Origin: Minisyncoccia bacterium
Lineage (GTDB): Bacteria; Patescibacteriota; Minisyncoccia; Phycocordibacterales; UBA9973
Direction: 5' to 3'
Length of the DNA: 64,000 nucleotides
Assembly (NCBI GenBank): GCA_038249055.1
Contig: JBBRWS010000004.1
Location: forward strand, 17,939-81,938
Shown here: positions 5,757-38,224 of the stretch, piece after piece
Numbering within the stretch: position 1 is the stretch's first letter
Layout of the letters: every line of letters begins with the position of its first letter
Notes under the pieces: generated by a model
What the model saw: the letters and a program-made list of their open reading frames with translations, nothing else
What the model was told of the DNA's origin: nothing
Databases searched by the model: none
Position numbers and translations under genes: made by a program

Positions 5757-5761
5757 ACATA

Positions 5762-5790: not shown

Positions 5791-5876
5791 TAAACTAATG
5801 TAAATATTTCCTGTACCATTCTTGTAGTGAGATTGGAGGGATAAAAAAATTTTCTAATCATCTAAAACTTAAACAG

Positions 5877-18588: not shown

Positions 18589-18745
18589 TTTTATCCACGT
18601 TGACTTATTTTTTGTAGATGATATAAAGAAACTATGTATACATTTGTACAAACACATATAGAGAACCGTACAAGATCAATCTTAAAATTTGAGATCGCTT
18701 GTGAGTGTTTGTATATTTAATAAATTTTAAAAACCAACTTTCAAA

Positions 18746-18788
18746 AGCGACCTCAATAAAAAAGGTCGCTTTTGTTCTTTTTGGTTGA
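18746..18788 (+). terminator. rho-independent terminator about 160 nt downstream of dnaJ
   Basis: Stem agcgacc / ggtcgct followed by tttgttcttttt. Confidence 0.7.
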
Positions 18789-21607: not shown

Positions 21608-21669
21608 TAGAATATAATTATCAATTAATAATAATTTTAATAAAGCTACACAAATTATATTTTAAGAAA

Positions 21670-21721
21670 TCTTTTAGAGGTCCAACCTCTAACTGGCTCC
21701 GGAGGTTGTACCTCTAAAAGA
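21670..21721. repeat. 20-bp-stem palindromic hairpin (related to the element at 42996-43032)
   Basis: tcttttagaggtccaacctc ... gaggttgtacctctaaaaga. It shares the 11-mers gtccaacctct and agaggttgtac with the second hairpin. Confidence 0.6.
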
Positions 21722-21766
21722 GTGATTCAGATTTTTTTCTAAAATAATTTTATATGCTAAAAACAT

Positions 21767-23913: not shown

Positions 23914-24837
23914 TTAACTATTCAATATTTTTATAAAATCCCTAGTAAACATTTTTTTATTAATTTTAGTAACTAGGTTTATGTTACAATTTTTATCACC
24001 ATAGGTTCTTTTTTCCATCACAGTCATACCTCTTGTATATTCTCCCTTTGTTTCAATTCTAATATCAGCCTTAATTAAAGAATATGCACTTGGGTTAATC
24101 AAGTAGTATCCAGCTAAAGCGTCATAAACTAAAGCGCCTTTTATTTTCTCAAAATTATTTATTCCTTCGATAAATTTTTTCATCATTGATATAATTGGTC
24201 TATATAGATTTCCTTTTTTAAGGCATTCAAAATCTTTCATAGTTAAAACTATTTTATTACATACATCGAGAGGAACTAGAATAATTTTTGCACCTGAATT
24301 AAAGACAATTTCAGCAGCCTCTGGATCGACAAAAATATTAAATTCAGCAGTTCTATTTTTATTTCCTGGACAATCAATCGCTCCACCCATAATAATAAAT
24401 TCCTTAACCAGTTTTGGTAAATTAGGTTCTTTTATTATAGCCTTTGCAATATTTGTTTCCGGGCCAATTACAACAATAGAAGTCCGACCCGGATTAGTCT
24501 TAATTATCTCGATTATCTTATCGACAGCTAGACCGTTTAGGGGCTCTTCTTTGGCTATTGTGGCCCCATCTAGACCGCTTTCACCGTGAACATTAGCCAA
24601 TATTAAGTCTCTACTTAAGGGTTTTTCAGACCCAGAATATATAGGTATTCCACCATCAACTAAATCAATTATATATCTTGCATTATCGGTAACATTTTTT
24701 AATGTTGAATTTCCGGCCACTGTGGCAATAGCTTTAATATCAACAACGCCAGACTTTTGTAATAGTAGAATAGCCAAGGCATCATCATGACCTGGATCAG
24801 TATCTATTATAATTTGTTTTTTTATATATTTTTTCAT
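23914..24837 (-). CDS. nucleoside hydrolase (inosine-uridine-preferring (IU-NH) family)
   Basis: IIIDTDPGHDDALAI is the hallmark Asp cluster. Confidence 0.85.
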   Translation of the reverse strand: MKKYIKKQIIIDTDPGHDDALAILLLQKSGVVDIKAIATVAGNSTLKNVTDNARYIIDLVDGGIPIYSGSEKPLSRDLILANVHGESGLDGATIAKEEPLNGLAVDKIIEIIKTNPGRTSIVVIGPETNIAKAIIKEPNLPKLVKEFIIMGGAIDCPGNKNRTAEFNIFVDPEAAEIVFNSGAKIILVPLDVCNKIVLTMKDFECLKKGNLYRPIISMMKKFIEGINNFEKIKGALVYDALAGYYLINPSAYSLIKADIRIETKGEYTRGMTVMEKRTYGDKNCNINLVTKINKKMFTRDFIKILNS

Positions 24838-24853
24838 AAATTTATTTAATATA

Positions 24854-25528
24854 TTAATTTATAATTTTTTCCAAACTTAAACTTTTATATAGTTCCTCGA
24901 TATTTTTTATTGTTTTATATTCATTATTTTCTAAATCAGTAATATATATAACATTTAACCCCGCTTCAATGGCTGGAAGTATATCTGAACCAAGAGAATC
25001 TCCAATCATAACAACTTCATCTGGATTAACTGAATATTTTACACAAATATCCTCATATATTTGTTTACTACCACCTTTAGGCATTTGACCTCCTTTTTCC
25101 CAAGCGATGATAAAATCAAAATTATTTTCATCGACATCTATAGCCTTTAAAATTTTTAAAGCTTGGATTGTAGGCCCATCTGTAATAGCACCCACAATAA
25201 AGCCTAATTTTTTTAGATTTTTTAATAATTCATTTGAATAAAGAATTACACTTAAATATTCTTCTGGATTAAGTGACAGTATCGCATCATACCAAACCCC
25301 AATATCTAATCCCGATAATTCAAAACTATATTCACCACGACCATTATATTTACGACGACAATCATCTGCTATTTTTTTACCTTCTTGTAATGATATATTT
25401 AATTCTCTGGCCAAAGTGCTCTCAAGTGTTCTTGAATACTGCGAATAAAATAATTTCGCTTTTTCGCCATATGAAAGGGTATTATCTATATCAAACAATA
25501 CTATTTTGATTTTATTTTTATTTATCAT
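24854..25528 (-). CDS. HAD-superfamily hydrolase (subfamily IA-like)
   Basis: Motif I LFDIDNTL and motif IV GDSLGSDI. Confidence 0.75.
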   Translation of the reverse strand: MINKNKIKIVLFDIDNTLSYGEKAKLFYSQYSRTLESTLARELNISLQEGKKIADDCRRKYNGRGEYSFELSGLDIGVWYDAILSLNPEEYLSVILYSNELLKNLKKLGFIVGAITDGPTIQALKILKAIDVDENNFDFIIAWEKGGQMPKGGSKQIYEDICVKYSVNPDEVVMIGDSLGSDILPAIEAGLNVIYITDLENNEYKTIKNIEELYKSLSLEKIIN

Positions 25529-25546
25529 ATATTTTTATAAATTAAT

Positions 25547-25574
25547 TTAATAAAGCAAAAACACACTTCCGGAC
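25547..25574 (-). terminator. minus-strand terminator just upstream of the HAD gene
   Basis: acacacttccg gac ggaagtgtgt, with a T run on the minus strand. Confidence 0.6.
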
Positions 25575-25619
25575 GGAAGTGTGTTTAAGATGTTTAATAG
25601 CGATATTATAACAAATTAA

Positions 25620-25682
25620 CTAGAAACCACTCCACCCGAGGTGATGTAGTGTATGATGCCAATTTGTTTTAATAATCTTCAT
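25620..25682 (-). CDS. candidate 20-aa small ORF (MKIIKTNWHHTLHHLGWSGF), possibly leaderless
   Basis: It sits between two minus-strand terminators. On the minus strand a TTGACA-16-TAATAC promoter (25717-25690) places the transcription start site at the ATG. Confidence 0.2.
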   Translation of the reverse strand: MKIIKTNWHHTLHHLGWSGF

Positions 25683-25848
25683 ATTCTCAGTATTAACCTT
25701 TCTTTGGTTCTTGTCAACTGCCCATTAAAATTAATTTATTTAACAATCTCTTTAGTAAACGACTTTTCTACATCATTTAAATCTTTTTCATATAATGATT
25801 ATGTCATTTTATTGTTACTATAATAAAAAAGATTAAATTTCAAATCAT

Positions 25849-25877
25849 AAAAAAGCCGGAAATAATTCCGGCCTTTT
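25849..25877. terminator. bidirectional terminator after the minus-strand 25892 CDS
   Basis: aaaaaagccggaaataattccggcctttt. Confidence 0.8.
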
Positions 25878-25891
25878 ATTTGTTTAGATGT

Positions 25892-26308
25892 TTAGTAGCA
25901 GACTCTCATGAGCCCATAAACTTTAGTTCTAATATCATCTCTAATTTCACGCAATCTTTCGATAGATAAATTAAATGGATCTTCGATTTCCCATAGAGTA
26001 ACAGAAGGGTGTTTAAAGACAAAATCAGGACAATCTTCTTTTTTACACATAACAATTACCTTGTCGGCTGATTTTATCATTTCCTCAGTAATGTATTTAG
26101 CGCTTTTAGAAGAAAGATCAATCCTTTCTTCTCTCATGACTTGTATTACATTAGGGTGTAATCTTTTCCATAATGCGGGAGTAGAAGGATCAATACCGGC
26201 ACTTGAGGCATCATTTGAATCTGTCATTTGGTTATAAAAACCTTCTGCCATTTGACTCCTACCTACATTGCCATGACAAATGAATAATAATTTTGGATCT
26301 GTATTCAT
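25892..26308 (-). CDS. arsenate reductase (thioredoxin-coupled ArsC) / LMW phosphotyrosine phosphatase family
   Basis: P-loop LFICHGNVGRSQMAE, and a second Cys pair in VMCKKEDCP as in Bacillus ArsC. Confidence 0.7.
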   Translation of the reverse strand: MNTDPKLLFICHGNVGRSQMAEGFYNQMTDSNDASSAGIDPSTPALWKRLHPNVIQVMREERIDLSSKSAKYITEEMIKSADKVIVMCKKEDCPDFVFKHPSVTLWEIEDPFNLSIERLREIRDDIRTKVYGLMRVCY

Positions 26309-26492: not shown

Positions 26493-27608
26493 ATGGACGT
26501 AAAAAGCTTACTTAAAGAAAAAGCATACCAAAACATTCCATTAAGTTTTGAAGAAGCTTATGAACTAGCAGCTTATACAATTGAGGGATGCAATGGTAAT
26601 GACCTTGCACAAATTCAATCAGTTGCTGTACTCTGTGCGTTGCATAATAAAGCAACATATCTTCACAAAGATGCATATCTTCAGATTGCTGGCATTTCTG
26701 CCGGAATCATTGATTTTGATATTAAAAAATCAATAAACGGATTTGCAAAACCAAAAGTTCCATATGTTGTTGATAACTGTGGAATGGGAGGAGATCACTT
26801 TGTAACTGCTAATGTTTCTACTTTAGCTGGATTAACTGCTGCATCTCTTGGTGTATACGTGTGTAAACATGGATCACCCGCAAATGCAGATAAGGGCAGA
26901 CAAGGAAGTTCAGATTTCATAAATTTTTGTGGAATACCAAACATCTTGCCTAAAAATGATATTGAAAGGATGATTGAATCTCATAGATTTGGTTATATTG
27001 AGGCTTTGGATACTAATTTTAAAGTTGTTCATCAGCAGACGCATAATTTTGCTCATCTGCCACATATGAATGACCTTATTGGCCCATTAACTCATCCTAT
27101 TGATCCTGTGCTTCTAAAGTATAAAATCATAGGGATTAATCATCTTGTACCAGTTGAAGTTGTAGTCAAGGCATTAAAAGTATTAAACGAAAAAGGATAT
27201 ACTTTTTTTGAAAAAGCTATGGCCGTTAGAGGAAGTGTTGGGTCTACAAATCAAGATGGAATTGATGAATTATCAATTACAAAATGGGGAACAACAGTTT
27301 CTGAATTATCTGAAAATGGTATTAGATCTTATTCTATCAATTCTGATGATTTCGGTATTAATCCAGTAGATAAATCATTTTTGACTCCGCCAAATGGTAT
27401 GAGTAAGGCTGATTTTTCGTTAAGTATTCTCAACAACGAGTCACCAAAAGAAAGTATTTATATGATTGCAGCAAGCAGTGCACTTATATTACAAATGGTT
27501 GGTGAAGTTAAAACTTTGAAAGAAGGATTTAATGTATCTTACGAACAGATTCGTTCTGGAAAAGTTGTTTCGTATTTATCAGATTTGAAAAATAGTATTG
27601 TTATTTAA
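26493..27608 (+). CDS. TrpD-like glycosyltransferase-family-3 protein (anthranilate phosphoribosyltransferase homolog), paralog 1
   Basis: DNCGMGGDHFVTANVSTLAGLTAASLGVYVCKHGSPANADKGRQGSSDF matches TrpD GTGGD...KHGNR...GSAD. Confidence 0.7.
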   Translation: MDVKSLLKEKAYQNIPLSFEEAYELAAYTIEGCNGNDLAQIQSVAVLCALHNKATYLHKDAYLQIAGISAGIIDFDIKKSINGFAKPKVPYVVDNCGMGGDHFVTANVSTLAGLTAASLGVYVCKHGSPANADKGRQGSSDFINFCGIPNILPKNDIERMIESHRFGYIEALDTNFKVVHQQTHNFAHLPHMNDLIGPLTHPIDPVLLKYKIIGINHLVPVEVVVKALKVLNEKGYTFFEKAMAVRGSVGSTNQDGIDELSITKWGTTVSELSENGIRSYSINSDDFGINPVDKSFLTPPNGMSKADFSLSILNNESPKESIYMIAASSALILQMVGEVKTLKEGFNVSYEQIRSGKVVSYLSDLKNSIVI

Positions 27609-27620
27609 ATTAACAATTTA

Positions 27621-27660
27621 GGGATAATTATTTTTTATAAATAATTATCCCTTTTGTTTT
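27621..27660 (+). terminator. rho-independent terminator
   Basis: gggataattat (loop) ataattatccc followed by ttttgtttt. Confidence 0.75.
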
Positions 27661-27689
27661 GTAATTATTATATTGTATAATCAATCATT

Positions 27690-28508
27690 ATGCCTACTAA
27701 ATTTAATTTTAATAAAAAAAATAATATCTTAATAGGGGCAGTGCACTTGCCTCCACTTCTTGGGTATCCAGATTTTCCTGGTTTTGAAATAGCACTTAGA
27801 AATGCAAAAACCGATTTAGAAACATTTCAAAAAGCTGGATTTGATGCAGTTATTATCGAAAACAATTATGATATTCCTCATTTTGAAAATGTTAACCCAT
27901 CTATAGGAATTTCTATGAGTATTTTGTGTTATCAATTAAAACAAATAGCAACAATACCCATAGGAATAAGTGTATTGTGGAATGATTATAAAACCGCACT
28001 TTCTATTGCAAAAACTATAGGGGCGGATTTTATTAGAATTCCTGTTTTTGTAGATACCGTTGAAACAAGTTACGGTGTTATTAAAGGTAACTCAAAAGAG
28101 GTTATTGATTTTAGAAAAAGTATAGACGCAGAAAATATTTTAATTTATACTGATATACACGTAAAACACGCGAAATTACTTTCTTCCTATTCTTTAATTG
28201 AATCAGCGACAAAGGCTATATCTGAGGGTAGTGATGGTCTAATAATAACCGGTAAATGGACAGGTGAACAACCTTCAATGGAAGACCTAAGGTCGGTTCG
28301 TGAATCTGTTGGCGATTTTCCAATTATTGCTGGAAGCGGTGTTGATAATAAAAATATTAAAGAAATATTTTCTTATGCGAACAGTTGCATTGTAAGTACT
28401 TCAGTAAAAGAAGGCATAAATAACAATAAAGAAATAAATATAAAAAACTATTCACAAAGAATTAACTTAGAAGAATGTATAAAATTAGTAAAAACAGTCA
28501 ACAATTAA
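27690..28508 (+). CDS. BtpA/SgcQ-family TIM-barrel protein
   Basis: LIGAVHLPPLLGYPDF...DAVIIENNYDIP matches the BtpA N-terminal signature. Confidence 0.65.
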   Translation: MPTKFNFNKKNNILIGAVHLPPLLGYPDFPGFEIALRNAKTDLETFQKAGFDAVIIENNYDIPHFENVNPSIGISMSILCYQLKQIATIPIGISVLWNDYKTALSIAKTIGADFIRIPVFVDTVETSYGVIKGNSKEVIDFRKSIDAENILIYTDIHVKHAKLLSSYSLIESATKAISEGSDGLIITGKWTGEQPSMEDLRSVRESVGDFPIIAGSGVDNKNIKEIFSYANSCIVSTSVKEGINNNKEINIKNYSQRINLEECIKLVKTVNN

Positions 28509-28521
28509 ATATAAAAATAAT

Positions 28522-28806
28522 ATGAAAAAAATTAAAACGAATGATTTAATTGATATAATAAATTCTATAAATAATGATAAAAATCTTTTAAATTCTTTTT
28601 TGACAGATTTATTGACACCAGCAGAATATACGGAAATAAAAAAACGTTGGGAAATTGTAAAAATGCTGAATGAGGGTATAAATCAACATCAAATATCAAA
28701 AAGTCTTCACGTTGGAATAGCTACAGTAACGCGAGGTTCTAGAGCCATAAAAGATTCAAAAGGTGGTTTTAAGAAAGTTTTAAATCAAAAAGACCATCTC
28801 AACTAA
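28522..28806 (+). CDS. YerC/YecD-family TrpR-like DNA-binding protein
   Basis: LLTPAEYTEIKKRWEIVKMLNEGINQHQISKSLHVGIATVTRGSR aligns with B. subtilis YerC. Confidence 0.7.
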   Translation: MKKIKTNDLIDIINSINNDKNLLNSFLTDLLTPAEYTEIKKRWEIVKMLNEGINQHQISKSLHVGIATVTRGSRAIKDSKGGFKKVLNQKDHLN

Positions 28807-28822
28807 TTAGCAGAGATGGTCT
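28791..28822. terminator. hairpin between convergent genes (agaccatctc / gagatggtct)
   Basis: A 10-bp stem. The YerC stop codon lies in the loop. Confidence 0.55.
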
Positions 28823-28852
28823 ATGATGGTTTAATTTTCAAATACACACTTT

Positions 28853-29953
28853 TCATGAAGTAATAATATCAGAGATTAATAAGTCGATTATTTTCTTATT
28901 TACATGTTGCATTACAACAATATGAGCTCTATCATTTTTTGTAGCAAGTTGCCACTTATTAATGATATTTTTTGATGGCTTATCAAAAGTTACAATATTT
29001 GAATTAATATTTAACTTAGGATTATAATGTATATCCATAAGCATCTTTTCCAAATATTTTGCATTTTCAATACATTCGATAGCTTCTTTTTTGAATCCGA
29101 TAATTCCCTTATTGTTTATTAATGCCCACAAAAATACTGCGAGCTGGCCATTTCTGGAGCCTGAGATAGTTGTATCGTCTGAGTCTATATATTCTATACA
29201 GTCGACAAAACTACCATGCGGTTTTTCTTTTGAAAGAAAAACACCAGAAGGAAAGGGGATACCAAAAAATTTATGAGCTGAGAGAGAAATACTATTAATA
29301 GGTTTATTAAAATTTAATTCATGTTCAATGCCTAAAAAGGGAAGAAACCCTCCAAATAAGGCTGCATCACAGTGAATATAAAAATTTTCATGTGATGTTT
29401 CTTTGAGTATGGATAAAACTTTATCAACATCATCAATAGCTCCATCAAAAGTAGTTCCTATAGTTAAATTAAGAATAGGAATTTTTCTTTCCTTGGATAA
29501 GAGATCATAAAGGTTTTCATAATTCATTTCACCATTTGATGATTCAACTTCCGCATATGGAACATTAAGAATAACTGAATTTTTCTTAATTGAATAATGC
29601 CCATCTGCTGAGTAAATTACTCCATCTGGATACTTGTTTCTTCCAAGAAGAAGCCCCATCAAATTACTTTCTGTTCCACCATTCGTAAGGTATCCCCACG
29701 AATTTTGGTCAAGGTTATAAATTCCTTTAAAGAATTCGAGCACTTTTTGCTCATATTCTTTTGAGTGCATTCTGTACGAACCATCCGTACAGCTTGGATC
29801 ACCTACATTGTTAATAACAAAATCAAAGAATTTATAAAATTCTGAAAAATCATTATTAAGATTACCAGGAAAACCTAGCATAAATGGAGCACTAGATTGC
29901 AGTCGCCAGTAAAACTGGCGCATTTCATCAGTCAACGTTATTAAAGCTTTCAT
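28853..29953 (-). CDS. PLP-dependent histidine decarboxylase-family (group II) decarboxylase
   Basis: SWGYLTNGGTESNLMGLLLGR and PLP-Lys context ISLSAHKFFGIPFPSGVFL. Close to bacterial HdcA (about 378 aa). Confidence 0.75.
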   Translation of the reverse strand: MKALITLTDEMRQFYWRLQSSAPFMLGFPGNLNNDFSEFYKFFDFVINNVGDPSCTDGSYRMHSKEYEQKVLEFFKGIYNLDQNSWGYLTNGGTESNLMGLLLGRNKYPDGVIYSADGHYSIKKNSVILNVPYAEVESSNGEMNYENLYDLLSKERKIPILNLTIGTTFDGAIDDVDKVLSILKETSHENFYIHCDAALFGGFLPFLGIEHELNFNKPINSISLSAHKFFGIPFPSGVFLSKEKPHGSFVDCIEYIDSDDTTISGSRNGQLAVFLWALINNKGIIGFKKEAIECIENAKYLEKMLMDIHYNPKLNINSNIVTFDKPSKNIINKWQLATKNDRAHIVVMQHVNKKIIDLLISDIITS

Positions 29954-30140: not shown

Positions 30141-30296
30141 ATATAATACGACCTATATGACATGGTTTATTATTGTAGTTGGAGCTTCATTTTTATGGGT
30201 ATTGGTAAATATTGCCAATCAATACCTTGTTTCTAAATTTTCTCAAAAGGAAAAGAGTTCCGGTGGTCTTGTTTTATTTTCTAGTCTCAGAAGTAT
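30141..30296 (+). repeat. diverged direct duplication (copy A) of the EamA-transporter promoter-proximal region and 5' coding end
   Basis: About 80% nt identity to 37295-37443. The atataatac...atgacatggttt stretch is shared. Confidence 0.7.
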
Positions 30297-30342
30297 GTTT
30301 ATTAGTATTTTTAATGTTTCTAGTTTATATACATTAATTTAA
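30157..30342 (+). pseudogene. N-terminal fragment / paralog of the EamA-like transporter gene (61 codons)
   Basis: MTWFIIVVGASFLWVLVNIANQYLVSKFSQKEKSSGGLVLFSSL compared with MTWFFIALGAPFLWAIVNIADQFLVSKYSEKEKERSSGGLVLFSSL at 37304. It then diverges and stops. Confidence 0.6.
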
Positions 30343-30407: not shown

Positions 30408-31616
30408 ATGGAAATCAATATTACTTTATCGGATGAGGAATTAAAAGAAATAGCTTTAAAGCAGAATAAATCGATTGAGGAGGTTGCGAATGATTATAAG
30501 CACATGATAAAAGATTTAGGTTATTCAAATAAAAAACTTAACGAAATAATCGAGAACTCCGCCTATATCAGGTTTCCTAATAATTTTTTACTACACGGAT
30601 ACGGTAAAAACAACGAGCTTAACTCAAAATACTTATGCTATGATAATTTAGATATTTTTAATGAAATTCCAAAAACCGAGTTAGCTATAGTTACAGGATT
30701 CGGTCCTACTAATTCTCCAACCGCTGGTACGCTGTGTTCAATTTTTAGAGTACTTGAACTTCAAAAACTAACTGGAATTTATACTCATATAATTATTTCA
30801 GAATTAAGTGCATTAAATTCAAGACAAAAGCCATTAAATGAACTAATAAAAAATTCTCATCAGTTTATATCATTTATTAAAAAATTAGGCTTTGATGAGA
30901 AAAATGGTGAGATTAGAACACACAACCACCATGATCATTCTCGGGTATTTTCACTTGTTTCTAGTGTTTTAAGTATTAGTGATTTGCTCGAAAAAATAGA
31001 AGTCACCAATGATACGTATAAAAGACTGCAATTACTTGGAAACGATTTCTCAAAAATGGTGAGCAGAACATATACAATGACAGACATTATATTACCAATA
31101 GTACGTGATAAAAAACGAGGAGTAATAGTTCCATTAGGATTGGAAGAACACCACCATCCTCATTTAGCGAGAATAGCACTAAATAGAATGAAACTAAAAA
31201 TAGGAGGTCTGGATAGTTTAGTTAAACACGACGCTGAAATTGGAGCATTACACGGGAAGCTTATTAGCGGTTTCTTTCCTTATGTTAAAATGTCAAAAAG
31301 TATTCCTGATTCTTCAATAAATCTAGGAGATAGTGAAGAAGAATTACATAAAAAAATAATAGAATGCGGGATAAGAAATGAAGAGGTTATTTTACAAATG
31401 ATGATACTTGCTTCCAATTGGAGTCCTGATAGATTAAATGAGGCAAAAAGTGCCTTTGAAAATTTAACAATAGATTACAAGCGATGGGAAAAGATAAAAT
31501 ATGACTATTTAAAGTTTTTTACTGAAATTAAAACTCTTTGGGAGGAGTCAAAATATGATAAAGAAATTAATACACACGAAGAGCTATTTTCAAATATAGG
31601 GGACACGGAAAAATAA
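30408..31616 (+). CDS. divergent tryptophanyl-tRNA-synthetase-like class I aaRS paralog (402 aa, N-terminal extension)
   Basis: Degenerate HIGH region TGFGPTNSPTAGTL (compare TrpRS TGxxPSGxxTIGN). KMSKS is intact (YVKMSKSIPDS). Confidence 0.55.
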   Translation: MEINITLSDEELKEIALKQNKSIEEVANDYKHMIKDLGYSNKKLNEIIENSAYIRFPNNFLLHGYGKNNELNSKYLCYDNLDIFNEIPKTELAIVTGFGPTNSPTAGTLCSIFRVLELQKLTGIYTHIIISELSALNSRQKPLNELIKNSHQFISFIKKLGFDEKNGEIRTHNHHDHSRVFSLVSSVLSISDLLEKIEVTNDTYKRLQLLGNDFSKMVSRTYTMTDIILPIVRDKKRGVIVPLGLEEHHHPHLARIALNRMKLKIGGLDSLVKHDAEIGALHGKLISGFFPYVKMSKSIPDSSINLGDSEEELHKKIIECGIRNEEVILQMMILASNWSPDRLNEAKSAFENLTIDYKRWEKIKYDYLKFFTEIKTLWEESKYDKEINTHEELFSNIGDTEK

Positions 31617-31650
31617 AAAAACACTACAATATAAGATTATTGTAGTGTTT
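31614..31650. terminator. bidirectional terminator between the convergent TrpRS-like gene and trpS
   Basis: aaaaaaacactacaat ataagatt attgtagtgttt. Confidence 0.8.
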
Positions 31651-31678
31651 CTAGATTTCAGTTTGTTGAGAAAAAAAA

Positions 31679-32686
31679 TTAATTTTCTTCAAAACCCATG
31701 GCTTTTTCAACTCTTTGGATAACCTCATTGGCATTTGCGCGAGCAATAGAGATGCCTTTTTTCAAAACTTCAGCCACTTGTTCATCTGAAATTTGTGTGC
31801 GTCTCTTTTGAAAAGAAGTAGTGAACTCAATGATAATATCAGCAACAAGTGTTTTGAATTTACCCATCACTTTCTCACCATTGAGATGTTGTTCAATAAG
31901 CGCATTAACTTCGCCTAATCTTTCTGGAGCGATAGCTTTTACAATAGCAACAAGATTGTCGAGCTTTTCACTTGTTTGCCCTTCGATGGCAGTCTCAGCT
32001 CTTTTCATTTTCTTTCTGATGTCTTCTGGACTATCATTAAGAAAAATTGCTCCTTCTGGTTTACTCTTGCTCATTTTTCCATCCCCAGTTAGTGACAAAA
32101 TGTTTACTGGTTCGTCGATGTTCATGGTTTCTGGACGGACAACAATTTTTCCGCCATTGCCATACTTGTTATTAAAAGCGTCAGCAAGTTCGCGAGCAAC
32201 TTCCATATGAGAAAATTGATCTTTTCCTACTGGAACCAACTGAGCATCCTGCAAGAGAATATCAGCTGCCATCATAATTGGATATGCCATAAGGAGGACG
32301 GTTGCTTGTTCTGGATTTTGTCCATCTTTTAATTTTTCCTTCAAAGTTGGCACGCGAGTCGCACGAGAAACAGTAATATGACGCTCGAGATAAAGTTTGA
32401 GCAAGGCAACCTCTTTGCGGAGACCACGTTGGTCAAAGATAACTATTTTCGATGGGTCTAATCCCAAAGCAATATAGTCCTTCACGATATCGCCTACTTT
32501 TAACTGTTCGGGTTCATGATCTGTTAGACCATGTAGAGTTGCAACGAAAACTAAAATTTCGCTTGATTCATTCAGCTTCTGCAATTCCAACAAAGGAAAT
32601 GTAGCACCAATCAAATTAGCGATAGTCAGGGTTGCAGTAGGTCTGATTCCTGTCAAAATTCTTTTCTTTGATTCTATTTTTTCCAT
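31679..32686 (-). CDS. trpS: tryptophanyl-tRNA synthetase
   Basis: RILTGIRPTATLTIANLIGA (a TIGN-type HIGH variant, as in Bacillus TrpRS) and KMSKSKPEGAIFL. Confidence 0.85.
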   Translation of the reverse strand: MEKIESKKRILTGIRPTATLTIANLIGATFPLLELQKLNESSEILVFVATLHGLTDHEPEQLKVGDIVKDYIALGLDPSKIVIFDQRGLRKEVALLKLYLERHITVSRATRVPTLKEKLKDGQNPEQATVLLMAYPIMMAADILLQDAQLVPVGKDQFSHMEVARELADAFNNKYGNGGKIVVRPETMNIDEPVNILSLTGDGKMSKSKPEGAIFLNDSPEDIRKKMKRAETAIEGQTSEKLDNLVAIVKAIAPERLGEVNALIEQHLNGEKVMGKFKTLVADIIIEFTTSFQKRRTQISDEQVAEVLKKGISIARANANEVIQRVEKAMGFEEN

Positions 32687-32883
32687 GGTTATATTTTTTA
32701 ATGAATTTATAGTGAATTATATCATTTTATGAGAAAATGTCAATGCTATAAATCTGATTAATTCTAATAATATCAGTATAGTTTTTTACTTTAAAATAAG
32801 CAAACTCAAATGTATCGTTATAATACAATTTATTGACACTTAATCTATTCATTGATATAATATTGTTTACTAAATTAAATATT

Positions 32884-34008
32884 ATGTATAATACTTTTTT
32901 AAGTGATAAAAATATTAGAGAACCGTACGAAACATTTTACAAACTGAATATTGGTTTATCGATTGATGAGTTTGAAGCACAAAACGCTATGCTGGAAATC
33001 TTTAATGAAAAAGACTTACAGAAAAAAACATATCTATTGACAATGTTACTAAATGGAATAATGATTAAGGGTCCTTCTGTGTCTGAGGTAAAAGGTTTAA
33101 TTAATGCTTCTTTATCCTTAGATGGTATACAAAAAAAACAAAAAATTACATTACCAAATAATGAATTGTTGGTTGGCGTAGCTGGTAGTGGAAAAAAGGG
33201 TTTTAAAACTATAAACATAACTACACCTGCTAGTTTTGTTGCTGCTGCCTGTGGTGCATATGTTGCAAAAGCGTGTTCTCATTCGACGTCGTCAAAAACA
33301 GGTTCCTCCGATTTTTTAGAATTAGTAGGTATTAATATAGATATTCCTTTTGTGGAAAAAGTAGAAATTTTGAAAAAGAAGAAAATTTCTTTTTTTTCAA
33401 TTGAGGATACTACTCCAAAATTTGCGGATGTTTATGGGGGTATATTTCATGCACCGCATGCAATGAGTTTTGCTTTGGCTGGGCTTAGCTTTCCGATACA
33501 AATTGATACTCTTGTGTATGGTTTATCACATCCTAATATTAAATTGTCTTTAGAGGTATATAAAGAATATGGTTTTAAAAATGTTTTAGTCTACTCATCT
33601 AGTGAGGATGGGGTACATTTTTTAGACGAACTCTCCATATCCGGGCGTGTAAATATCATTGGTATGAAAAATTATAAAGTTGGACAAACAGTATCAGCTA
33701 ACATAATAGATGAGTTTCCTTTTTTCTCAAATAGTAATTTAAAAGAATTAGCAGAAAAGGAATATCCAATTGATAACGTGAAATGTTCTCTAAAGGTACT
33801 TAATGGTACAGGTCTAAAAAGTCATATTGAAACTATATGTCTTAATGCGGCACCAATTATTCTTGCGGCTGGAAAAGTCAATTCATTAAAAGAGGGATAT
33901 TTGTTGGCAAAGAAAAATATTGAAAATGGAGAAGTATTTAAATTATTTTTAGAAGTTGTTGAATTGTATGGAGGAGATAGAAATAAAATATATAATATAA
34001 TTGACTGA
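32884..34008 (+). CDS. TrpD-like glycosyltransferase-family-3 protein, paralog 2 (degenerate GTGGD); the ORF could begin at 32833
   Basis: VGVAGSGKKGFKTINITTPASFVAAACGAYVAKACSHSTSSKTGSSDFLELVGI. Confidence 0.6.
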   Translation: MYNTFLSDKNIREPYETFYKLNIGLSIDEFEAQNAMLEIFNEKDLQKKTYLLTMLLNGIMIKGPSVSEVKGLINASLSLDGIQKKQKITLPNNELLVGVAGSGKKGFKTINITTPASFVAAACGAYVAKACSHSTSSKTGSSDFLELVGINIDIPFVEKVEILKKKKISFFSIEDTTPKFADVYGGIFHAPHAMSFALAGLSFPIQIDTLVYGLSHPNIKLSLEVYKEYGFKNVLVYSSSEDGVHFLDELSISGRVNIIGMKNYKVGQTVSANIIDEFPFFSNSNLKELAEKEYPIDNVKCSLKVLNGTGLKSHIETICLNAAPIILAAGKVNSLKEGYLLAKKNIENGEVFKLFLEVVELYGGDRNKIYNIID

Positions 34009-34915
34009 GAAAAATAGACAAGTTATGAATACAATACACAATAACAATCGTCATCCAGAAATTTTTCTGGGAACTTGGCGTATGGGAGGGGATGTTGAGG
34101 TAAATCCAAACAATGACGATGGAAGAGATGTTGACGCTATAAAATATGCAATTACTAGGGGTATTTCTCATATTGATACCTCAGAAAGTTATGCAAATGG
34201 CAAAACCGAGTTACTCATCAGTGATGCAATAAGACAATTTTCTAGAGATAGGTATTTTATAGCAACCAAAGTTCGTGAATACAATCTCTCTTATGATAAT
34301 ATCATTCGCTCTTGTATGAAATCTCTAGAAAGGCTAAATGTGTCATATATTGATTTATATTATATTCACAAACAAAATCCTCTTGTTGCAATAGAAGATA
34401 TCGCGAGAGCATTAAATAAACTGATGGAAATGGGTCTAATTAAAAATGTGGGGTTAAGTAATGTTGGAATTAATACAATAAAAAAATATTCCCAACTACT
34501 AAATAAACCAGTGTATGCGGTTCAAAATCAATATAATCTAGTCTGTCGTGAATCGCAAAGAAAGGGTATTATAGATTATTGTAAAAAAAATGGCATTAAG
34601 TTCATTGCGTGGAGACCTGTTCTACTTTCGTATCCCGGAGTCATAGACCCTTATTATCGTACTGGCACATATCAACTTCTAGATGAAATGGCTCAAAAGT
34701 ACAATAAATCAAATACTCAAATTGTAGCTAAATGGCTTTTACAGCAAGATGGTGTTTCAATTGTTTTTAAAAGTTCAAATAAAAAACATATTGATGAGAT
34801 TTTAGATGTAGACAATTTTAATCTTTCTGAAGCTGATTGGAATATCTTAGATAAAAATTTTCCAGTACAAAAAGATGTCGGATGTACTGCTGATGCATAC
34901 TTTGAGGTGTCATAA
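34001..34915 (+). CDS. aldo/keto reductase
   Basis: IDTSESYANGKTELLI...IATK and the wider aldo-keto reductase (AKR) fold pattern. It overlaps the upstream gene by 8 nt. Confidence 0.8.
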   Translation: MTEKNRQVMNTIHNNNRHPEIFLGTWRMGGDVEVNPNNDDGRDVDAIKYAITRGISHIDTSESYANGKTELLISDAIRQFSRDRYFIATKVREYNLSYDNIIRSCMKSLERLNVSYIDLYYIHKQNPLVAIEDIARALNKLMEMGLIKNVGLSNVGINTIKKYSQLLNKPVYAVQNQYNLVCRESQRKGIIDYCKKNGIKFIAWRPVLLSYPGVIDPYYRTGTYQLLDEMAQKYNKSNTQIVAKWLLQQDGVSIVFKSSNKKHIDEILDVDNFNLSEADWNILDKNFPVQKDVGCTADAYFEVS

Positions 34916-34937
34916 TAAAATAAAAATATAAAACTAT

Positions 34938-36032
34938 ATGAAAAAAGAACATAGTACCGTACTAGAATTAGTAAAATATGGTAACAAAAAAATAGATAAG
35001 TTATTGGAGATACTTGACGATAAAACCATAAATTGGATCGAGGTCTTGGGATACCTGTGTTATCATCGTGTTAGTGGGCTTGCCTATGAGATTATGAACT
35101 CAATTGAGGTAAGGAAGCTCGATTTTCCTGTATTTTTTACAATATATATGATTCATGAGTCTCAAGGAATAAGAACAAATTTGCAAAAAGAATATATAAA
35201 AATAATTTCTTCTAAATTATGCGAAGCTAATATAAAGCATGTTTTCTTAAAGGGGTCTGTTTTATCAAGTACTATTTATCCGATAGGCGCTAGGGCCTCT
35301 AATGATATTGATATATTGGTATCAAAAAAATCAATTTTAGAAGCTAAAAATGTATTGAATGATTTAGGGTTTTTGCAGGGTAAATATGATTACAAAAAAG
35401 ATGCCATCGATGAGGCTGACCAAGATGCACTTACAAAAAGTCTGAACACTAGAGGCGAAATGTTTCCATTTATTAAAATAATTAACGAGAGAACCGCTAA
35501 AACTATAGATGTTGATGTTAATTTCTCACTAGATTGGACACCAAATTCTTCGGATAGCGCAGTTGATTATTTTTTAGAAGAACGAACTCTTCTTCCTGTT
35601 GATGGAGATTTTTCAATTTATTCTTTAACAGAAGAACATTTATTTATCCATTTGTGTAGCCACCTATACAAAGATGCGGCTTTATTAGACATTGTGAAAA
35701 AAAGAAAAGTACTAGACCTGTATAAATTTGTTGATATATATACATTTATTCAAAAGTATTTCGAGCGGATTAATATTGAAAAGATATATAAAGATTCTGT
35801 AAAATATGGTTTTGATAAAAATGTTTTCTTCACACTAAATTACACCTCTATAATTTTTCCAGAGATATTGGAAATACCTAATGTTGTTTTACTTCATAAA
35901 AAATTTAATTATATAAACGATAATGTTATGGAAGAAATTTTTGACCAGGATAATCCTGAAAACAAAATGATAGATAGAGGTGGTTTAATTGATAGATTAT
36001 TTTCGTATGATATCATAAATAAATATAACTAA
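34938..36032 (+). CDS. Pol-beta-superfamily nucleotidyltransferase (NTP_transf_5 / PF14907-like)
   Basis: FLKGSVLSSTIYPIGARASNDIDILV carries the GS...DxD nucleotidyltransferase signature. Confidence 0.55.
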   Translation: MKKEHSTVLELVKYGNKKIDKLLEILDDKTINWIEVLGYLCYHRVSGLAYEIMNSIEVRKLDFPVFFTIYMIHESQGIRTNLQKEYIKIISSKLCEANIKHVFLKGSVLSSTIYPIGARASNDIDILVSKKSILEAKNVLNDLGFLQGKYDYKKDAIDEADQDALTKSLNTRGEMFPFIKIINERTAKTIDVDVNFSLDWTPNSSDSAVDYFLEERTLLPVDGDFSIYSLTEEHLFIHLCSHLYKDAALLDIVKKRKVLDLYKFVDIYTFIQKYFERINIEKIYKDSVKYGFDKNVFFTLNYTSIIFPEILEIPNVVLLHKKFNYINDNVMEEIFDQDNPENKMIDRGGLIDRLFSYDIINKYN

Positions 36033-36046
36033 TAATTGAAATTCCT

Positions 36047-37210
36047 ATGAATAATTTAACCTTAAGCACAGAATTATCTGAAATATTTAGTTGTAGTATT
36101 AAAACTATAAAAAATGATTTAAACCATACATTTCATACGATGATGAGTGATAGTCTGACGACAACTATTACATGTAACTATGCCTTATGTTCTGATCATT
36201 TGAAGGAATTCAGTAGTACTTTTAATGCTCTGATGAAACCTTCGCAGAATAATAGTCGTACTATCATTAGTGCTTTTGTTTTAGAAAATGAAGATATTTT
36301 CCAAAAAATAGAATCTGTGTTTCTATATGAAGGTTGGTCAAAGAACAGTGATATAAATAAATTTAATTTAGCAACTCATGATACATCCAGAGCTAAATGC
36401 ACAGCTGAAAATAAGTTTTACATAATTAAATGCTATGATCATTTTTATTATATTTATAACACAGAATCTAATGAGTGCCTGCTTGTAGTAAAGGACGAAA
36501 AAAAAGCTTTGACTATGATTAATATTTTATTACTATCGCCATATTTATCATATGGTGATTTATATGCTATCCATGGTGGATTGGTAAGTAATGGAAATAA
36601 TAATATCCTTCTTACTAATTTATCTTTGGGTGGAAAAACCACATTTGCTTTGCTTTTTTTAGAAAATGGATGGAAAATTGTGACAGAGGAAACTACATAT
36701 ATTACAAAACATGGACAGATACTAAATTATAATATAAGAAATTATTTCAATATCAGAGTTGGTACATATTTGGAATTTAAAGATTTTTTTATGAAAGCTG
36801 GTATTGTTAATGACTTCTTTTTAAGTATGGCAAACATGGATAAAAATGAATTATTTAAACTTGGGAAGAAAGAACAAATGCTAATATATTTTGATATTTT
36901 ATCTAAGGATAAAGCTAATTTACCAAATGATCAGATAACCCATACATTAAGAGTTTCTCTTGATAAAAACAAATCCGGTATTACGATTGAGAGTAGTAGT
37001 GGTCATGAAGAGATTGTCGACGGGTTCCTAGAAATAAGTTTTGCACCAACTGTTACACTTTTTAAAGGTCTGTTAAAGATAACTAATGTAGTTAAAGAAA
37101 AAAGTAAAAATGGGTTAATGCAAATATTCAAAACTGTAAAAAGTTACTCGTTAATATCTGGTCTTGATTACAGAAAAAATTTTGATTTTCTAATACAAGA
37201 AATAAAGTAA
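36047..37210 (+). CDS. HPr-kinase/phosphorylase C-domain-like P-loop protein
   Basis: IHGGLVSNGNNNILLTNLSLGGKTTFALLFLENGWKIVTEETTYI compared with the HprK_C consensus lHG..v...g.GvLltG.SGiGKSe.aLeLi.rGh.LvaDD.v. Confidence 0.5.
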   Translation: MNNLTLSTELSEIFSCSIKTIKNDLNHTFHTMMSDSLTTTITCNYALCSDHLKEFSSTFNALMKPSQNNSRTIISAFVLENEDIFQKIESVFLYEGWSKNSDINKFNLATHDTSRAKCTAENKFYIIKCYDHFYYIYNTESNECLLVVKDEKKALTMINILLLSPYLSYGDLYAIHGGLVSNGNNNILLTNLSLGGKTTFALLFLENGWKIVTEETTYITKHGQILNYNIRNYFNIRVGTYLEFKDFFMKAGIVNDFFLSMANMDKNELFKLGKKEQMLIYFDILSKDKANLPNDQITHTLRVSLDKNKSGITIESSSGHEEIVDGFLEISFAPTVTLFKGLLKITNVVKEKSKNGLMQIFKTVKSYSLISGLDYRKNFDFLIQEIK

Positions 37211-37294: not shown

Positions 37295-37443
37295 ATATAA
37301 TACATGACATGGTTTTTTATTGCACTTGGAGCTCCATTTTTATGGGCAATTGTAAATATTGCGGATCAGTTTCTAGTTTCTAAATATTCAGAAAAAGAAA
37401 AGGAGAGGAGCTCTGGGGGGCTTGTTTTATTTTCTAGTCTCAT
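37295..37443 (+). repeat. diverged direct duplication (copy B) at the start of the full-length EamA transporter gene
   Basis: Pairs with 30141-30296. Confidence 0.7.
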
Positions 37444-38224
37444 AGGTATTTTTATTGCTATTTTTATTGCTATCTTTACAACTGGTATTTTAGATGTAAG
37501 TAATTTAGATATTATTTTATTGCTTTTAGCTGGAGGATTATCTATTGTTTGGATTATTTTATATTTATACGCTATTGAAATTGAAGATATTTCAGTTATT
37601 GTACCTTGGTTTTTAACTGTCCCTATTTTTGGATTTATTCTAGGTTATATTTTTCTAGGAGAAACATTATCTACCTCGCAAATTTTTGGTTCCATTGTTG
37701 TATTTTTTGGGTTGATTTTACTTTCTATTGATTTTTTCGAGAGAAAGATTACTGCAAAAAAGAAAACAATTATATACATGCTTATTGCGTCTTTAATAAT
37801 TGCTTGCTCTGGTGTTTTATTTAAATTTGTAACGATTGAGGGTAATTTTTGGGTATCTTCATTCTGGGAATATTCTGGATTAGGAATAACAGGCTTATTT
37901 TTATATATCTTTATTCCTAAATATCGTAATGAATTTTTGTATATGCACAGAATGGGAGGAAGAAAGATTCTTATGGTTAATATAACAAGTGAATTAATGA
38001 CTATTTCAGGTAATTTAATGACAAATTTTGCCTTATTGTTGGCTCCAGTAAGTATGGTTTATCTTGTGGGAAGTTTTCATCCGGCGATTGTTTTAATTTT
38101 AACTATTATCGGTTCAAAATTTTTCCCTCATATTATAAAAGAAAATATTTCAAAAAAAGCTCTACTTCAAAAATTTATCGCAATTTTTATTATGATTATA
38201 GGCAGTGTATTTTTATTTAAATAA
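37304..38224 (+). CDS. EamA/DMT-superfamily transporter (about 10 TM helices)
   Basis: Multi-TM hydropathy pattern with two EamA-like halves. Confidence 0.6.
   Translation: MTWFFIALGAPFLWAIVNIADQFLVSKYSEKEKERSSGGLVLFSSLIGIFIAIFIAIFTTGILDVSNLDIILLLLAGGLSIVWIILYLYAIEIEDISVIVPWFLTVPIFGFILGYIFLGETLSTSQIFGSIVVFFGLILLSIDFFERKITAKKKTIIYMLIASLIIACSGVLFKFVTIEGNFWVSSFWEYSGLGITGLFLYIFIPKYRNEFLYMHRMGGRKILMVNITSELMTISGNLMTNFALLLAPVSMVYLVGSFHPAIVLILTIIGSKFFPHIIKENISKKALLQKFIAIFIMIIGSVFLFK

Follow-up and report, generated by a model that had tools for sequence, protein, structure and literature searches.

A family of TrpRS/TyrRS-like proteins encoded with a TrpD-like enzyme and a genuine tryptophanyl-tRNA synthetase in a Patescibacteria gene cassette

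We analyzed a stretch of 64,000 nucleotides from a Minisyncoccia bacterium (GenBank assembly GCA_038249055.1, contig JBBRWS010000004.1, positions 17,939 to 81,938; the whole stretch is called the window below) in which two convergent open reading frames (ORFs) are present, one on the plus strand at 30408-31616 (402 aa) and one on the minus strand at 31679-32686 (335 aa). A preliminary description had taken them for a canonical tryptophanyl-tRNA synthetase (TrpRS) and a highly divergent paralog of it, and the coordinates, lengths and motifs that it quoted were as described. The 335-aa protein is a canonical TrpRS. The 402-aa protein, judged from its sequence, is no divergent copy of the TrpRS encoded in this genome, and probably it is no TrpRS at all; it belongs to a separate, tightly conserved, small and sharply bounded family of synthetase-like proteins. 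This family stands apart from true TrpRS and tyrosyl-tRNA synthetase (TyrRS) and conserves its ATP signatures, its genes often adjoin or are fused to those of metabolic enzymes, it is spread across hosts of very different GC content, one of its clades is linked to TrpRS and the other to TyrRS, and transporter genes lie in the same clusters. We consider it an even chance that the synthetase-like protein is a non-translational, ATP-dependent aromatic-amino-acid ligase of a small-molecule pathway in which the co-located synthetase serves for self-protection, the chemistry being our reconstruction.

Sequence and fold of the 402-aa protein

The 402-aa protein carries the motifs GFGPTNSPTAGTL and FPYVKMSKSI and matched PF00579 weakly in Pfam (39.2 bits, residues 90-367). 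As this match begins at residue 90, the N terminus is about 85 residues longer than that of bacterial TrpRS, close to the extension of about 80 aa that had been reported. The TrpRS and TyrRS equivalog models scored the protein at 33-41 bits, with cutoffs of 176-891 bits, and the archaeal-type TrpRS, archaeal-type TyrRS and bacterial trpS models were nearly tied. Thus, TIGR00233 gave 37.1 bits (cutoff, 176.75), the NF008925-8 models gave 33-41 bits (cutoffs, 320-891), and NF006330 (TyrRS) gave 39 bits (cutoff, 220). A collection of 5.8 billion proteins contained 293 homologs, the best 120 of which were 60-92% identical to the window protein over the full length. The alignment of 16 clade I members showed the invariant blocks VTGFGPT..PTAGTL, TGIYTHI, L.ALNSRQK, GEIRTHN, GND.S, TDI.LP (which contains D226), G.EEH and PY.KMSKSI..SSI. 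A family profile built from this alignment had no match among PDB sequences at E<0.01 and so matched no solved TrpRS or TyrRS. Against 1.84 billion representative proteins, it found 180 at E<=1e-3, 128 at E<=1e-10 and 40 at E<=1e-30; canonical TrpRS and TyrRS, for which thousands of clusters would be expected in that set, lay beyond its reach.

Two signature classes were seen in the family: clade I, which comprises the window protein and the actinomycete forms, has P-T-A-G-T-L, and clade II has P-H-x-G-T-[LIV], while KMSKS was found in nearly all members of both clades. PTAGT was invariant in 16/16 aligned clade I members, with P-H-x-G-T as its counterpart in the sister clade. Beyond its own subclade, the family was 21-45% identical to the window protein, and KMSKS and the glycines of the HIGH loop were still invariant. 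The positions conserved without exception family-wide were G97, G99, P104 and G107 of the HIGH loop, G244, E247, and K294, S296, K297 and S298 of KMSKS; D226 was nearly invariant. The segment PTAGTL had been called a degenerate HIGH motif; its conservation speaks against decay and for a clade-specific variant of the ATP signature, and the protein looks catalytically competent. PTAGT departs from the canonical HIGH sequence but would be compatible with the use of ATP. The failure at all equivalog cutoffs, the isolation of the family profile and the fusions to metabolic enzymes described below are the reasons why we regard the protein as probably not a TrpRS. A divergent TyrRS of this lineage was ruled out as well: the protein is absent from most genomes of the candidate phyla radiation (CPR), and the family profile does not reach TyrRS.

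The AlphaFold (AF2) model of the 402-aa protein (predicted local distance difference test [pLDDT], 76.7; predicted template modelling score, 0.78; low confidence at residues 196-212 and in the KMSKS loop) showed a Rossmann core with a helical region N-terminal to it and a helical domain at the C terminus. In Foldseek, archaeal and eukaryotic TrpRS structures were at the top (3a04, E of 7e-12; 3tze, 3jxe and 4jfa; TM of 0.55-0.6; 365-398 columns), and TyrRS and bacterial TrpRS ranked lower, at about 4e-8. The resemblance to the archaeal and eukaryotic enzymes 3a04, 3jxe and 3tze (E of 7e-12 to 1e-9) extended from the class Ic Rossmann fold with its KMSKS loop to the helical domain at the C terminus, and the alignment covered the N-terminal region of the synthetase-like protein. 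However, identity to them was 12-19%, and the synthetase-like protein has PTAGT and pairs or fuses with metabolic enzymes. With hhalign, it aligned with the cassette-linked TrpRS proteins at 99.3% probability (E of 4e-20, 269 columns extending into the C-terminal domain) and more weakly with TyrRS (97.5%, E of 7e-12, from a shallow TyrRS profile of 3 sequences). The landmarks of bacterial TrpRS, including Deinococcus radiodurans TrpRS II and the indolmycin-resistant copies, could all be placed on it: PTAGT aligned with TIGN, D226 with the tryptophan-binding Asp132, E246/E247 with the D and Q of GxDQ, and KMSKS with KMSKS. A check of the tryptophan-binding residues, which had been suggested earlier, found the Asp132 equivalent nearly invariant, GxDQ replaced by GLEE and His43 by Ser. 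These results support a class Ic (W/Y) Rossmann fold that is nearer to TrpRS than to TyrRS. Neither of the findings that would have overturned the earlier description was made: the Rossmann domain is present, and both Foldseek and hhalign favored TrpRS over TyrRS. From the first reading of the protein as a divergent TrpRS paralog, the class Ic fold and the closeness to TrpRS therefore stood, and the assignment as a paralog of TrpRS gave way to a separate family that fails all equivalogs.

A 2022 review of synthetase duplications lists no non-translational TrpRS- or TyrRS-like paralog apart from the cyclodipeptide synthases (PMC9437257), and among open-access papers and bioRxiv preprints, we found no account of this family or of a pairing of TrpRS/TyrRS-like with TrpD-like proteins. 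The family, its partner subfamily and the cassette described below therefore appear to be new. The general logic, with a synthetase-derived biosynthetic enzyme and a target synthetase in one cluster, is already known.

The cassette in the window and in other genomes

The gene for the 402-aa protein is part of a six-gene cassette (30408-37210) that also encodes the TrpRS, a TrpD-like protein, an aldo-keto reductase, a PF14907 nucleotidyltransferase and a P-loop protein with the fold of phosphoenolpyruvate carboxykinase (PEPCK) and HprK, with an EamA gene adjoining. The features in this region are as follows.

30154 to 30316, plus strand: truncated duplicate of the EamA 5' end at the left edge of the cassette (61-aa ORF at 30157-30342)
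30408 to 31616, plus strand: 402-aa class Ic (TrpRS/TyrRS-fold) synthetase-like enzyme of clade I, PTAGT ... KMSKS (weak PF00579 match, family profile, AF2 fold)
31617 to 31652, both strands: bidirectional intrinsic terminator common to the two convergent genes (15-bp stem between an A run and a T run)
31679 to 32686, minus strand: genuine 335-aa TrpRS of Patescibacteria/CPR type in the TrpRS slot of the cassette (TIGR00233, full-length alignment)
32716 to 32861, both strands: divergent promoter region with two perfect (12/12) extended -10 promoters of the sigma-70 type, at 32743-32716 on the minus strand for TrpRS and at 32833-32861 on the plus strand for the TrpD-like operon
32833 to 34008, plus strand: TrpD-like partner (glycosyltransferase family 3, GT3) of the GSGKK subfamily (PF00591 and motifs; start at 32833, 32863 or 32884)
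34001 to 34915, plus strand: aldo-keto reductase (PF00248, 195 bits; gene-caller start at 34025)
34938 to 36032, plus strand: PF14907 nucleotidyltransferase-fold protein (PF14907, 106.5 bits)
36047 to 37210, plus strand: 387-aa P-loop protein, a putative kinase, with a GGKTT Walker A motif and a PEPCK/HprK-type fold (AF2 and Foldseek)
37304 to 38224, plus strand: EamA-family transporter, a possible exporter, flanking the cassette (PF00892)

The plus-strand promoter at 32833-32861 overlaps the mechanical TTG start at 32833. Because of this overlap, the true start of the TrpD-like gene is probably TTG 32863, which is the gene caller's choice, or ATG 32884, and the leader would be very short. As read from these signals, the genes for the synthetase-like protein and TrpRS are each monocistronic, and the TrpD-like, aldo-keto reductase, nucleotidyltransferase and P-loop genes form a single predicted transcription unit that possibly includes EamA. 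No riboswitch or T-box was found in the window cassette. The EamA fragment at 30154-30316 was 82-85% identical at the DNA level to 37301-37469, the first ~165 bp of the intact gene, at a spacing of about 7150 bp, and the truncated and intact copies bracket exactly the six-gene cassette. The duplicate looks like a scar of insertion or rearrangement.

The 335-aa protein, with the motifs GIRPTATLTIANLIGA and GKMSKS, passed TIGR00233, the trpS equivalog, with 227.6 bits (cutoff, 176.75) and aligned end to end with the TrpRS of Bacillus stearothermophilus (PDB 1i6k/5dk4), keeping His43, Met129, Asp132, VPVGxDQ and KMSKS, which bears out its earlier assignment. At E<=1e-20 it had 2873 homologs along a smooth identity gradient from 93% to 45%, and the named ones came from Falkowbacteria, Yonathbacteria, Woesebacteria, Dojkabacteria and Paceibacterota. 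Among its 120 closest relatives, the HIGH position was T[IV]AN or TLAN in 99 of the 105 in which it was recognizable. The TIAN sequence, which had been presented as a HIGH variant, is thus the norm of the lineage and no peculiarity of this gene, and the gene is of the ordinary CPR housekeeping type; a special, resistant TrpRS marked by TIAN was ruled out on the same count. Two relatives of this TrpRS, at 67% identity (on a 965-kb contig) and 81% identity, had neither a synthetase-like nor a TrpD-like gene within 10 kb. A 129-aa ORF at 31821-32210 on the plus strand lies antisense to TrpRS. Its recurrence in related loci simply reflects conservation of TrpRS coding on the other strand, and it is almost certainly no real gene.

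To find further cassettes, GTDB was scanned with clade I peptide patterns at one genome per species (185,579 species representatives), so that counts for clade II are lower bounds. The scan returned 23 loci. Clade I proteins at 39-90% identity were encoded at 17 of them (16 were full-length, and the one at L017 was a TrpD-like fusion), and at the remaining 6, which come from Micromonospora, Salinispora, Pilimelia and Actinoplanes, the homologs were shorter, with about 330 aa and an identity of 30-33%. The loci of CPR and of small-genome Bacilli type had a constant set of genes, encoding the synthetase-like protein, TrpRS, the TrpD-like protein, the aldo-keto reductase, the PF14907 nucleotidyltransferase and the 387-aa protein. 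Gene order and orientation were reshuffled among loci, and the Bacilli-type loci carried two extra haloacid dehalogenase (HAD) phosphatases. The actinomycete clusters read helix-turn-helix regulator, TrpD-like protein, synthetase-like protein, short-chain dehydrogenase/reductase (SDR), FAD oxidoreductase, TrpRS, HAD and EamA transporter. Across hosts with GC contents of 0.24-0.61, the synthetase-like protein kept an identity of 49-90%, and pairwise identities followed broadly congruent patterns from one cassette protein to the next. These comparisons suggest strong purifying selection on the synthetase-like protein and indicate horizontal spread of the cassette. The case for transfer rests on the GC differences because the NCBI labels of the metagenome-assembled genomes (MAGs) do not agree with one another (Flavobacteriales, Ignavibacteriales, WS2 and Parvarchaeum, among others). 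Viral contigs contained no relatives of the synthetase-like protein, and PLSDB contained a single plasmid carrier.

A TrpRS gene lay within a few kilobases of the synthetase-like gene at 22 of the 23 clade I loci, and these TrpRS genes belonged to at least five lineages. They include the CPR host type (the window and L001), the A-type groups {L002, L006} and {L003, L005, L013}, the D. radiodurans TrpRS-II type at the Bacilli-type loci (374 bits to 2a4m) and an actinomycete type (355 bits to 5tev); at L002, an A-type and a type-II TrpRS gene stand side by side. The identity pattern of TrpRS-II is that of the synthetase-like protein, and the TrpRS proteins of {L003, L005, L013} were 72-74% identical across GC contents of 0.30-0.61; for these reasons, both appear to travel with the cassette. 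The TrpRS of the window and L001 was just 44-47% identical to all other A-type cassette TrpRS proteins. For the other five cassette proteins, identity of the window versions to those of the other CPR-type loci was 53-84%, except for the replaced TrpD-like protein in L003, L005 and L013. The TrpRS slot therefore seems always to be filled, and by interchangeable TrpRS genes. A dedicated tRNA gene was not consistently present in the cassettes, which ruled out a pyrrolysine-like arrangement; L008 alone had tRNA-Trp beside the cassette. At that locus, from a rumen Bacilli MAG, a tRNA-Trp (CCA) gene and then a T-box leader directly follow the TrpD-like gene (18308-18770), an arrangement unique among the loci examined.

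The TrpD-like partner belongs to a divergent subfamily. Both TrpD-like genes of the window are real at the domain level (PF00591, 100.2 and 99.3 bits), and both fell under the trpD equivalog cutoff; TIGR01245 (trpD) gave the gene at 32833-34008 132 bits (cutoff, 199). In 18/18 partners examined, GTGGD was replaced by GSGK[KED] and KHGN was lost, while the ribose-phosphate motif N[IV][ST][ST], GSxD and the metal-binding DE were kept, the last as DQ in the L003/L005/L013 type. The same subfamily serves clade I, clade II and the fusion proteins. Synthetase-like and TrpD-like genes were adjacent in most contexts, including those of clade II (L028, L029, L031, L032, L033 and a Bacillus thuringiensis plasmid); no TrpD-like gene was seen at L026/L027, and the contig of L030 was too short to show neighbors. 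TrpD-like and synthetase-like proteins were fused in family members P0126, P0127 and P0136 and at the Polyangia locus L017, and a Cof-type HAD was fused to the synthetase-like protein in P0152; these are independent fusions. At L003, L005 and L013, the TrpD-like protein was longer (about 455 aa), about 28% identical to that of the window and had DQ for DE. Because it is so different while the other cassette genes of these loci remain 45-80% identical to those of the window, the partner appears to have been replaced within the cassette. The preliminary description had fitted two TrpD-like genes into one theme. The gene at 32833-34008 does belong with the synthetase-like gene, but the second, at 26493-27608, has canonical GMGGD/KHG motifs and is of another subfamily.

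The aldo-keto reductase was 56-88% identical across the loci that have it. Actinomycete clusters had the SDR and FAD oxidoreductase in its slot, and clade II clusters a zinc-dependent alcohol dehydrogenase (Zn-ADH). The PF14907 protein was kept in all cassettes of CPR/Bacilli type at 38-88% identity. The 387-aa protein had no Pfam match and a weak match to TIGR04355; the database held 129 homologs of it, and the named ones came from the same MAGs as the synthetase-like proteins, 1-3 locus tags apart. Its AF2 model (pLDDT, 91.4) resembled ATP-dependent PEPCK in Foldseek (E of 1e-7, TM of about 0.4) and, more weakly, HprK/P, and this fold-level evidence makes it a putative P-loop phosphotransferase. 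The 387-aa and PF14907 proteins appear to be an accessory pair because neither occurs in the clusters of actinomycetes or of clade II. In the clusters for lasso peptides, a homolog of HPr kinase puts a phosphate on a hydroxyl group, and this phosphate is then decorated by a partner nucleotidyltransferase (PMC8498205). By analogy, the pair in the cassette might phosphorylate and then decorate a product. PADLOC found no match to a defense system; its only hit, a weak one, was AbiEii-like, for the nucleotidyltransferase.

In clade II, the neighboring synthetase was TyrRS. It was found in 4 of the 7 distinct contexts with readable neighbors (L026/27, L031, L032 and plasmid pBMB172). On pBMB172, from the cultured B. 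thuringiensis C15, the operon comprises the synthetase-like gene, GT3, Zn-ADH, HAD, a major facilitator superfamily (MFS) transporter and tyrS, and it is flanked by IS6, recombinase and IS4 genes. The plasmid-borne TyrRS is of the Thermus thermophilus/6bqy-like subtype. We found nothing on pBMB172 among open-access papers and bioRxiv preprints. At L033, the order was Rgg, MFS, the synthetase-like gene, GT3 and a nonribosomal peptide synthetase (NRPS) module of the A-PCP-C type, and at L031 there were an AMP-binding enzyme, an ATP-binding cassette (ABC) transporter, TyrRS and a radical S-adenosylmethionine (rSAM)/SPASM protein. These contexts look like natural-product clusters.

Proposed function and alternatives

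The proposed ligase would bind tryptophan and ATP and form Trp-AMP, and the tryptophanyl group would then pass to a small ribose-derived acceptor and not to tRNA. The TrpD-like enzyme would build this acceptor from a phosphoribosyl donor, and the reductase would then process it. In the CPR/Bacilli version, the kinase-like and nucleotidyltransferase-like proteins would add tailoring, and in other cassette versions a HAD phosphatase would also act on the acceptor. The product would resemble tryptophanyl-adenylate, be exported and target TrpRS, and the cassette TrpRS (or TyrRS) would protect or insulate the translation of the producer. We infer which amino acid and which acceptor are used, in what order the steps run, what the product is and what it targets; tryptophan is suggested as the clade I substrate by analogy with the neighboring synthetase and by the conserved Asp226. 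An auxiliary enzyme of tryptophan-derived chemistry linked to the TrpD-like protein had been one of the ideas put forward earlier, and it is the direction in which the evidence points.

Recruitment of this kind has precedents. The CysRS-like enzyme MshC attaches an amino acid to a small molecule, and the synthetase-derived domains of AcmF (AlaRS-like) and SbzA (IleRS-like) have the same role. All three differ from the proteins described here in that they come from other synthetase families, and AcmF and SbzA use aminoacyl-tRNA. Clusters with such enzymes can hold a resistant copy of the target synthetase (PMC12945691). Synthetase-like enzymes are known to build aminoacyl nucleoside antibiotics (PMC12945691), and in tubercidin biosynthesis, a transferase using phosphoribosyl pyrophosphate (PRPP), a reductase, a phosphohydrolase and an MFS transporter occur together (PMC6112128).

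It is possible, and in our view somewhat less than an even prospect, that this novel family makes a new class of aminoacyl-adenylate mimics, which would inhibit TrpRS in the case of clade I and TyrRS in that of clade II, and that the mobile cassette carries an insensitive copy of the target. On this tentative reading, taken as a whole, the hosts would be ultra-small Patescibacteria, small-genome Bacilli of gut and rumen, Micromonosporaceae and a B. thuringiensis plasmid. Organisms that make synthetase inhibitors have, besides the sensitive target, a second copy of it that is insensitive (PMC9437257, PMC7916415), and in the self-resistance systems for mupirocin, indolmycin, albomycin and agrocin 84, the target copy and a transporter lie inside the cluster (PMC7916415, PMC9437257). 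In the present clusters, a synthetase was found inside at 22/23 clade I loci and in 4/7 clade II contexts, the 64-kb window having a single TrpRS of host type. The transporters were EamA (in the window and in Micromonospora, beside HAD and TrpRS), MFS (on pBMB172 and at L033) and ABC (at L031), the MFS and ABC transporters of clade II taking the place that EamA has in the window, and they were co-located with biosynthetic enzymes (reductases, phosphatases, the NRPS module and the AMP-binding enzyme), the combination expected of an inhibitor cluster. For the cassettes described here, resistance of the synthetases is a prediction by analogy. Second TrpRS copies that confer resistance are documented (PMC9437257), and an antibiotic-resistance role had been suggested for the 402-aa protein; this idea suits the genuine TrpRS and TyrRS genes in the clusters better and the synthetase-like protein less. 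The likeness to auxiliary, resistant TrpRS enzymes lies in the neighboring genuine TrpRS at other loci and not in the 402-aa protein or the window TrpRS. SB-219383 from a Micromonospora strain is described as a unique dipeptide with selective and potent activity against bacterial TyrRS (PMC9054317). A gene cluster for it was not found among open-access papers and bioRxiv preprints, and a link to the Micromonospora cassettes would be an analogy.

Several points weigh against an inhibitor cassette with self-protection. None of the synthetase-like proteins has been assigned a product, a substrate or an activity. The window TrpRS is of the ordinary housekeeping type, and no second TrpRS was seen in the 64 kb; in addition, 3 of the 7 clade II contexts showed no synthetase on the available, short contigs. 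The TrpRS or TyrRS could equally supply aminoacyl-tRNA or be there for co-regulation, and in reduced genomes of ~1 Mb, the cassettes could be salvage pathways. The C-terminal helical domain, which binds the anticodon in TrpRS, is kept in the synthetase-like protein, and tRNA binding is thus possible. The AF2 model of this protein is only moderate (pLDDT, 76.7), and, the taxonomic labels of the MAGs being unreliable, the breadth of transfer leans mainly on GC.

One alternative, which we consider unlikely, is that reduced genomes use the cassette in primary metabolism, for a cofactor or for salvage of nucleosides, ribose or tryptophan-related compounds, and that this pathway is simply co-regulated with TrpRS and makes no inhibitor. 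The hosts do include CPR and Bacilli genomes of ~1-1.5 Mb, and purifying selection on the cassette is very strong; a nucleoside hydrolase, a HAD, a TrpR-like regulator and the second TrpD-like gene lie nearby, and the window TrpRS is of housekeeping type. Such a pathway is hard to reconcile with the rare and patchy distribution over GC contents of 24-61%, with the CPR relatives that have the same type of TrpRS and no cassette within 10 kb, and with the exchange of TrpRS types among cassettes, one of which (L002) carries two TrpRS genes. It also does not account for the plasmid operon with MFS and tyrS genes between insertion sequences or for the copies with NRPS, AMP-binding, ABC and rSAM genes.

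It is improbable, in our judgment, that the synthetase-like protein is instead an aminoacyl-tRNA-dependent transferase, of the cyclodipeptide synthase or AcmF/SbzA type, that moves tryptophan from the Trp-tRNA made by the neighboring TrpRS to a ribose-derived acceptor. The cognate synthetase beside the gene (TrpRS in clade I and TyrRS in clade II), the retained C-terminal helical domain and the tRNA-Trp gene adjoining the L008 cassette would suit this role. However, the ATP signatures of the synthetase-like protein are strictly conserved, Pfam gave PF00579 only and no cyclodipeptide synthase family, the tRNA gene was found at one locus only, and a housekeeping TrpRS would already supply Trp-tRNA, which leaves a dedicated copy unexplained. 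Cyclodipeptide synthases are about 230-300 aa long and are not known to carry the ATP signatures. They share with the synthetase-like protein the class Ic Rossmann ancestry, and with it the fold, and a place in secondary metabolism (PMC12945691, PMC9437257), but the synthetase-like protein keeps KMSKS, the HIGH loop and the C-terminal helical domain; the cyclodipeptide synthase AlbC is without the C-terminal tRNA-binding domain (PMC9437257).

A genuine but very divergent second TrpRS that charges tRNA-Trp, as an isoform for stress, resistance or an alternative substrate, is quite improbable. Its attractions are that TrpRS was the best match in both structure and profile to the class Ic fold of the protein, that KMSKS, the HIGH-type loop, the Asp132 equivalent and the C-terminal helical domain are present, and that auxiliary TrpRS enzymes are known elsewhere (PMC9437257). 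Against it, the protein failed all TrpRS and TyrRS equivalogs by >130 bits and its profile stopped short of canonical TrpRS and TyrRS, the gene nearly always stands beside a real TrpRS and does not replace one, TrpD-like or HAD fusions occur in several lineages, the sister clade sits with TyrRS, the cassettes have no dedicated tRNA, and a clade I protein was found at just 17 loci among the 185,579 species representatives.

We hold out as little for a HisZ-like role, in which the protein would be a regulatory or obligatory non-catalytic subunit of the TrpD-like phosphoribosyltransferase that senses tryptophan. The tRNA-synthetase-like subunit of ATP-phosphoribosyltransferase that serves as its model is presumably that of HisZ-HisG, in which the HisRS paralog HisZ senses histidine for HisG; HisZ is non-catalytic and has lost the catalytic motifs. 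This precedent, which is cited in the reference list of PMC9437257, likewise joins a synthetase paralog to a phosphoribosyltransferase from the pathway of the cognate amino acid, and the frequent pairing and fusion with TrpD-like proteins and the conserved equivalent of the tryptophan-binding Asp fit it. Yet KMSKS and the HIGH-loop glycines are invariant in the synthetase-like family despite identities of 21-45%, a sign that ATP chemistry has been retained; the TrpD-like partner is of a divergent subfamily and stands without other trp genes, and the co-occurring reductases, phosphatases and exporters suggest a multistep pathway.

If the proposed ligase and inhibitor are real, a ligase derived from Trp/Tyr synthetases would join the short list of synthetase paralogs with chemistry outside translation, and natural compounds that inhibit two antibacterial targets, TrpRS and TyrRS, would await exploration. 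Substrate specificity could then be predicted from the synthetase that each clade accompanies, TrpRS for clade I and TyrRS for clade II. CPR bacteria are generally credited with little biosynthetic capacity, and the cassette would be a conserved specialized-metabolite cassette in this group. Cultured entry points are B. thuringiensis C15 with pBMB172 and strains of Micromonospora, Salinispora, Actinoplanes and Pilimelia. Even if the details are wrong, a conserved and horizontally spread six-gene unit whose partners lack a described function is a well-defined target.

Neighboring genes and unusual family members

Upstream of the cassette, the block at 26493-29953 encodes the second TrpD-like protein, a BtpA-family TIM-barrel protein, a 94-aa TrpR/YerC-like repressor and a histidine-decarboxylase-like pyridoxal phosphate enzyme (NF002748, 390 bits) and has a tryptophan or aromatic-amine theme. 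It was ruled out as part of the cassette, as it is absent at the locus of the closest relative (L001) and its TrpD-like gene is of the canonical-motif subfamily. Farther upstream, at 23914-26308 on the minus strand, there are genes of nucleoside-salvage type for an inosine-uridine nucleoside hydrolase, a HAD phosphatase and a low-molecular-weight phosphatase; this HAD might stand in for those carried inside other versions of the cassette. A polyamine-type run at 20231-23861, downstream of dnaJ (17497-18588), encodes an Orn/Arg decarboxylase-like protein, a deoxyhypusine-synthase-family protein and an arginase/agmatinase-family protein.

Among the clade II loci, L032 encodes on one strand (681-6747) two distinct synthetase-like proteins of clade II, GT3, Zn-ADH and a TyrRS that is longer by ~100 aa at its N terminus. 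In P0174 (911 aa) and P0216 (885 aa), from L026 and L027, the synthetase-like domain is fused to a conserved N-terminal region of ~560-620 aa that had no Pfam match even at E<=10. The segment LLDDNIMSGMT in this region resembles a PRPP-binding loop and might conceivably mark a type I phosphoribosyltransferase domain. The neighbors at L026/L027 were an APH-type kinase, a CAT-family acyltransferase, a HAD 5'-nucleotidase-like protein and TyrRS.

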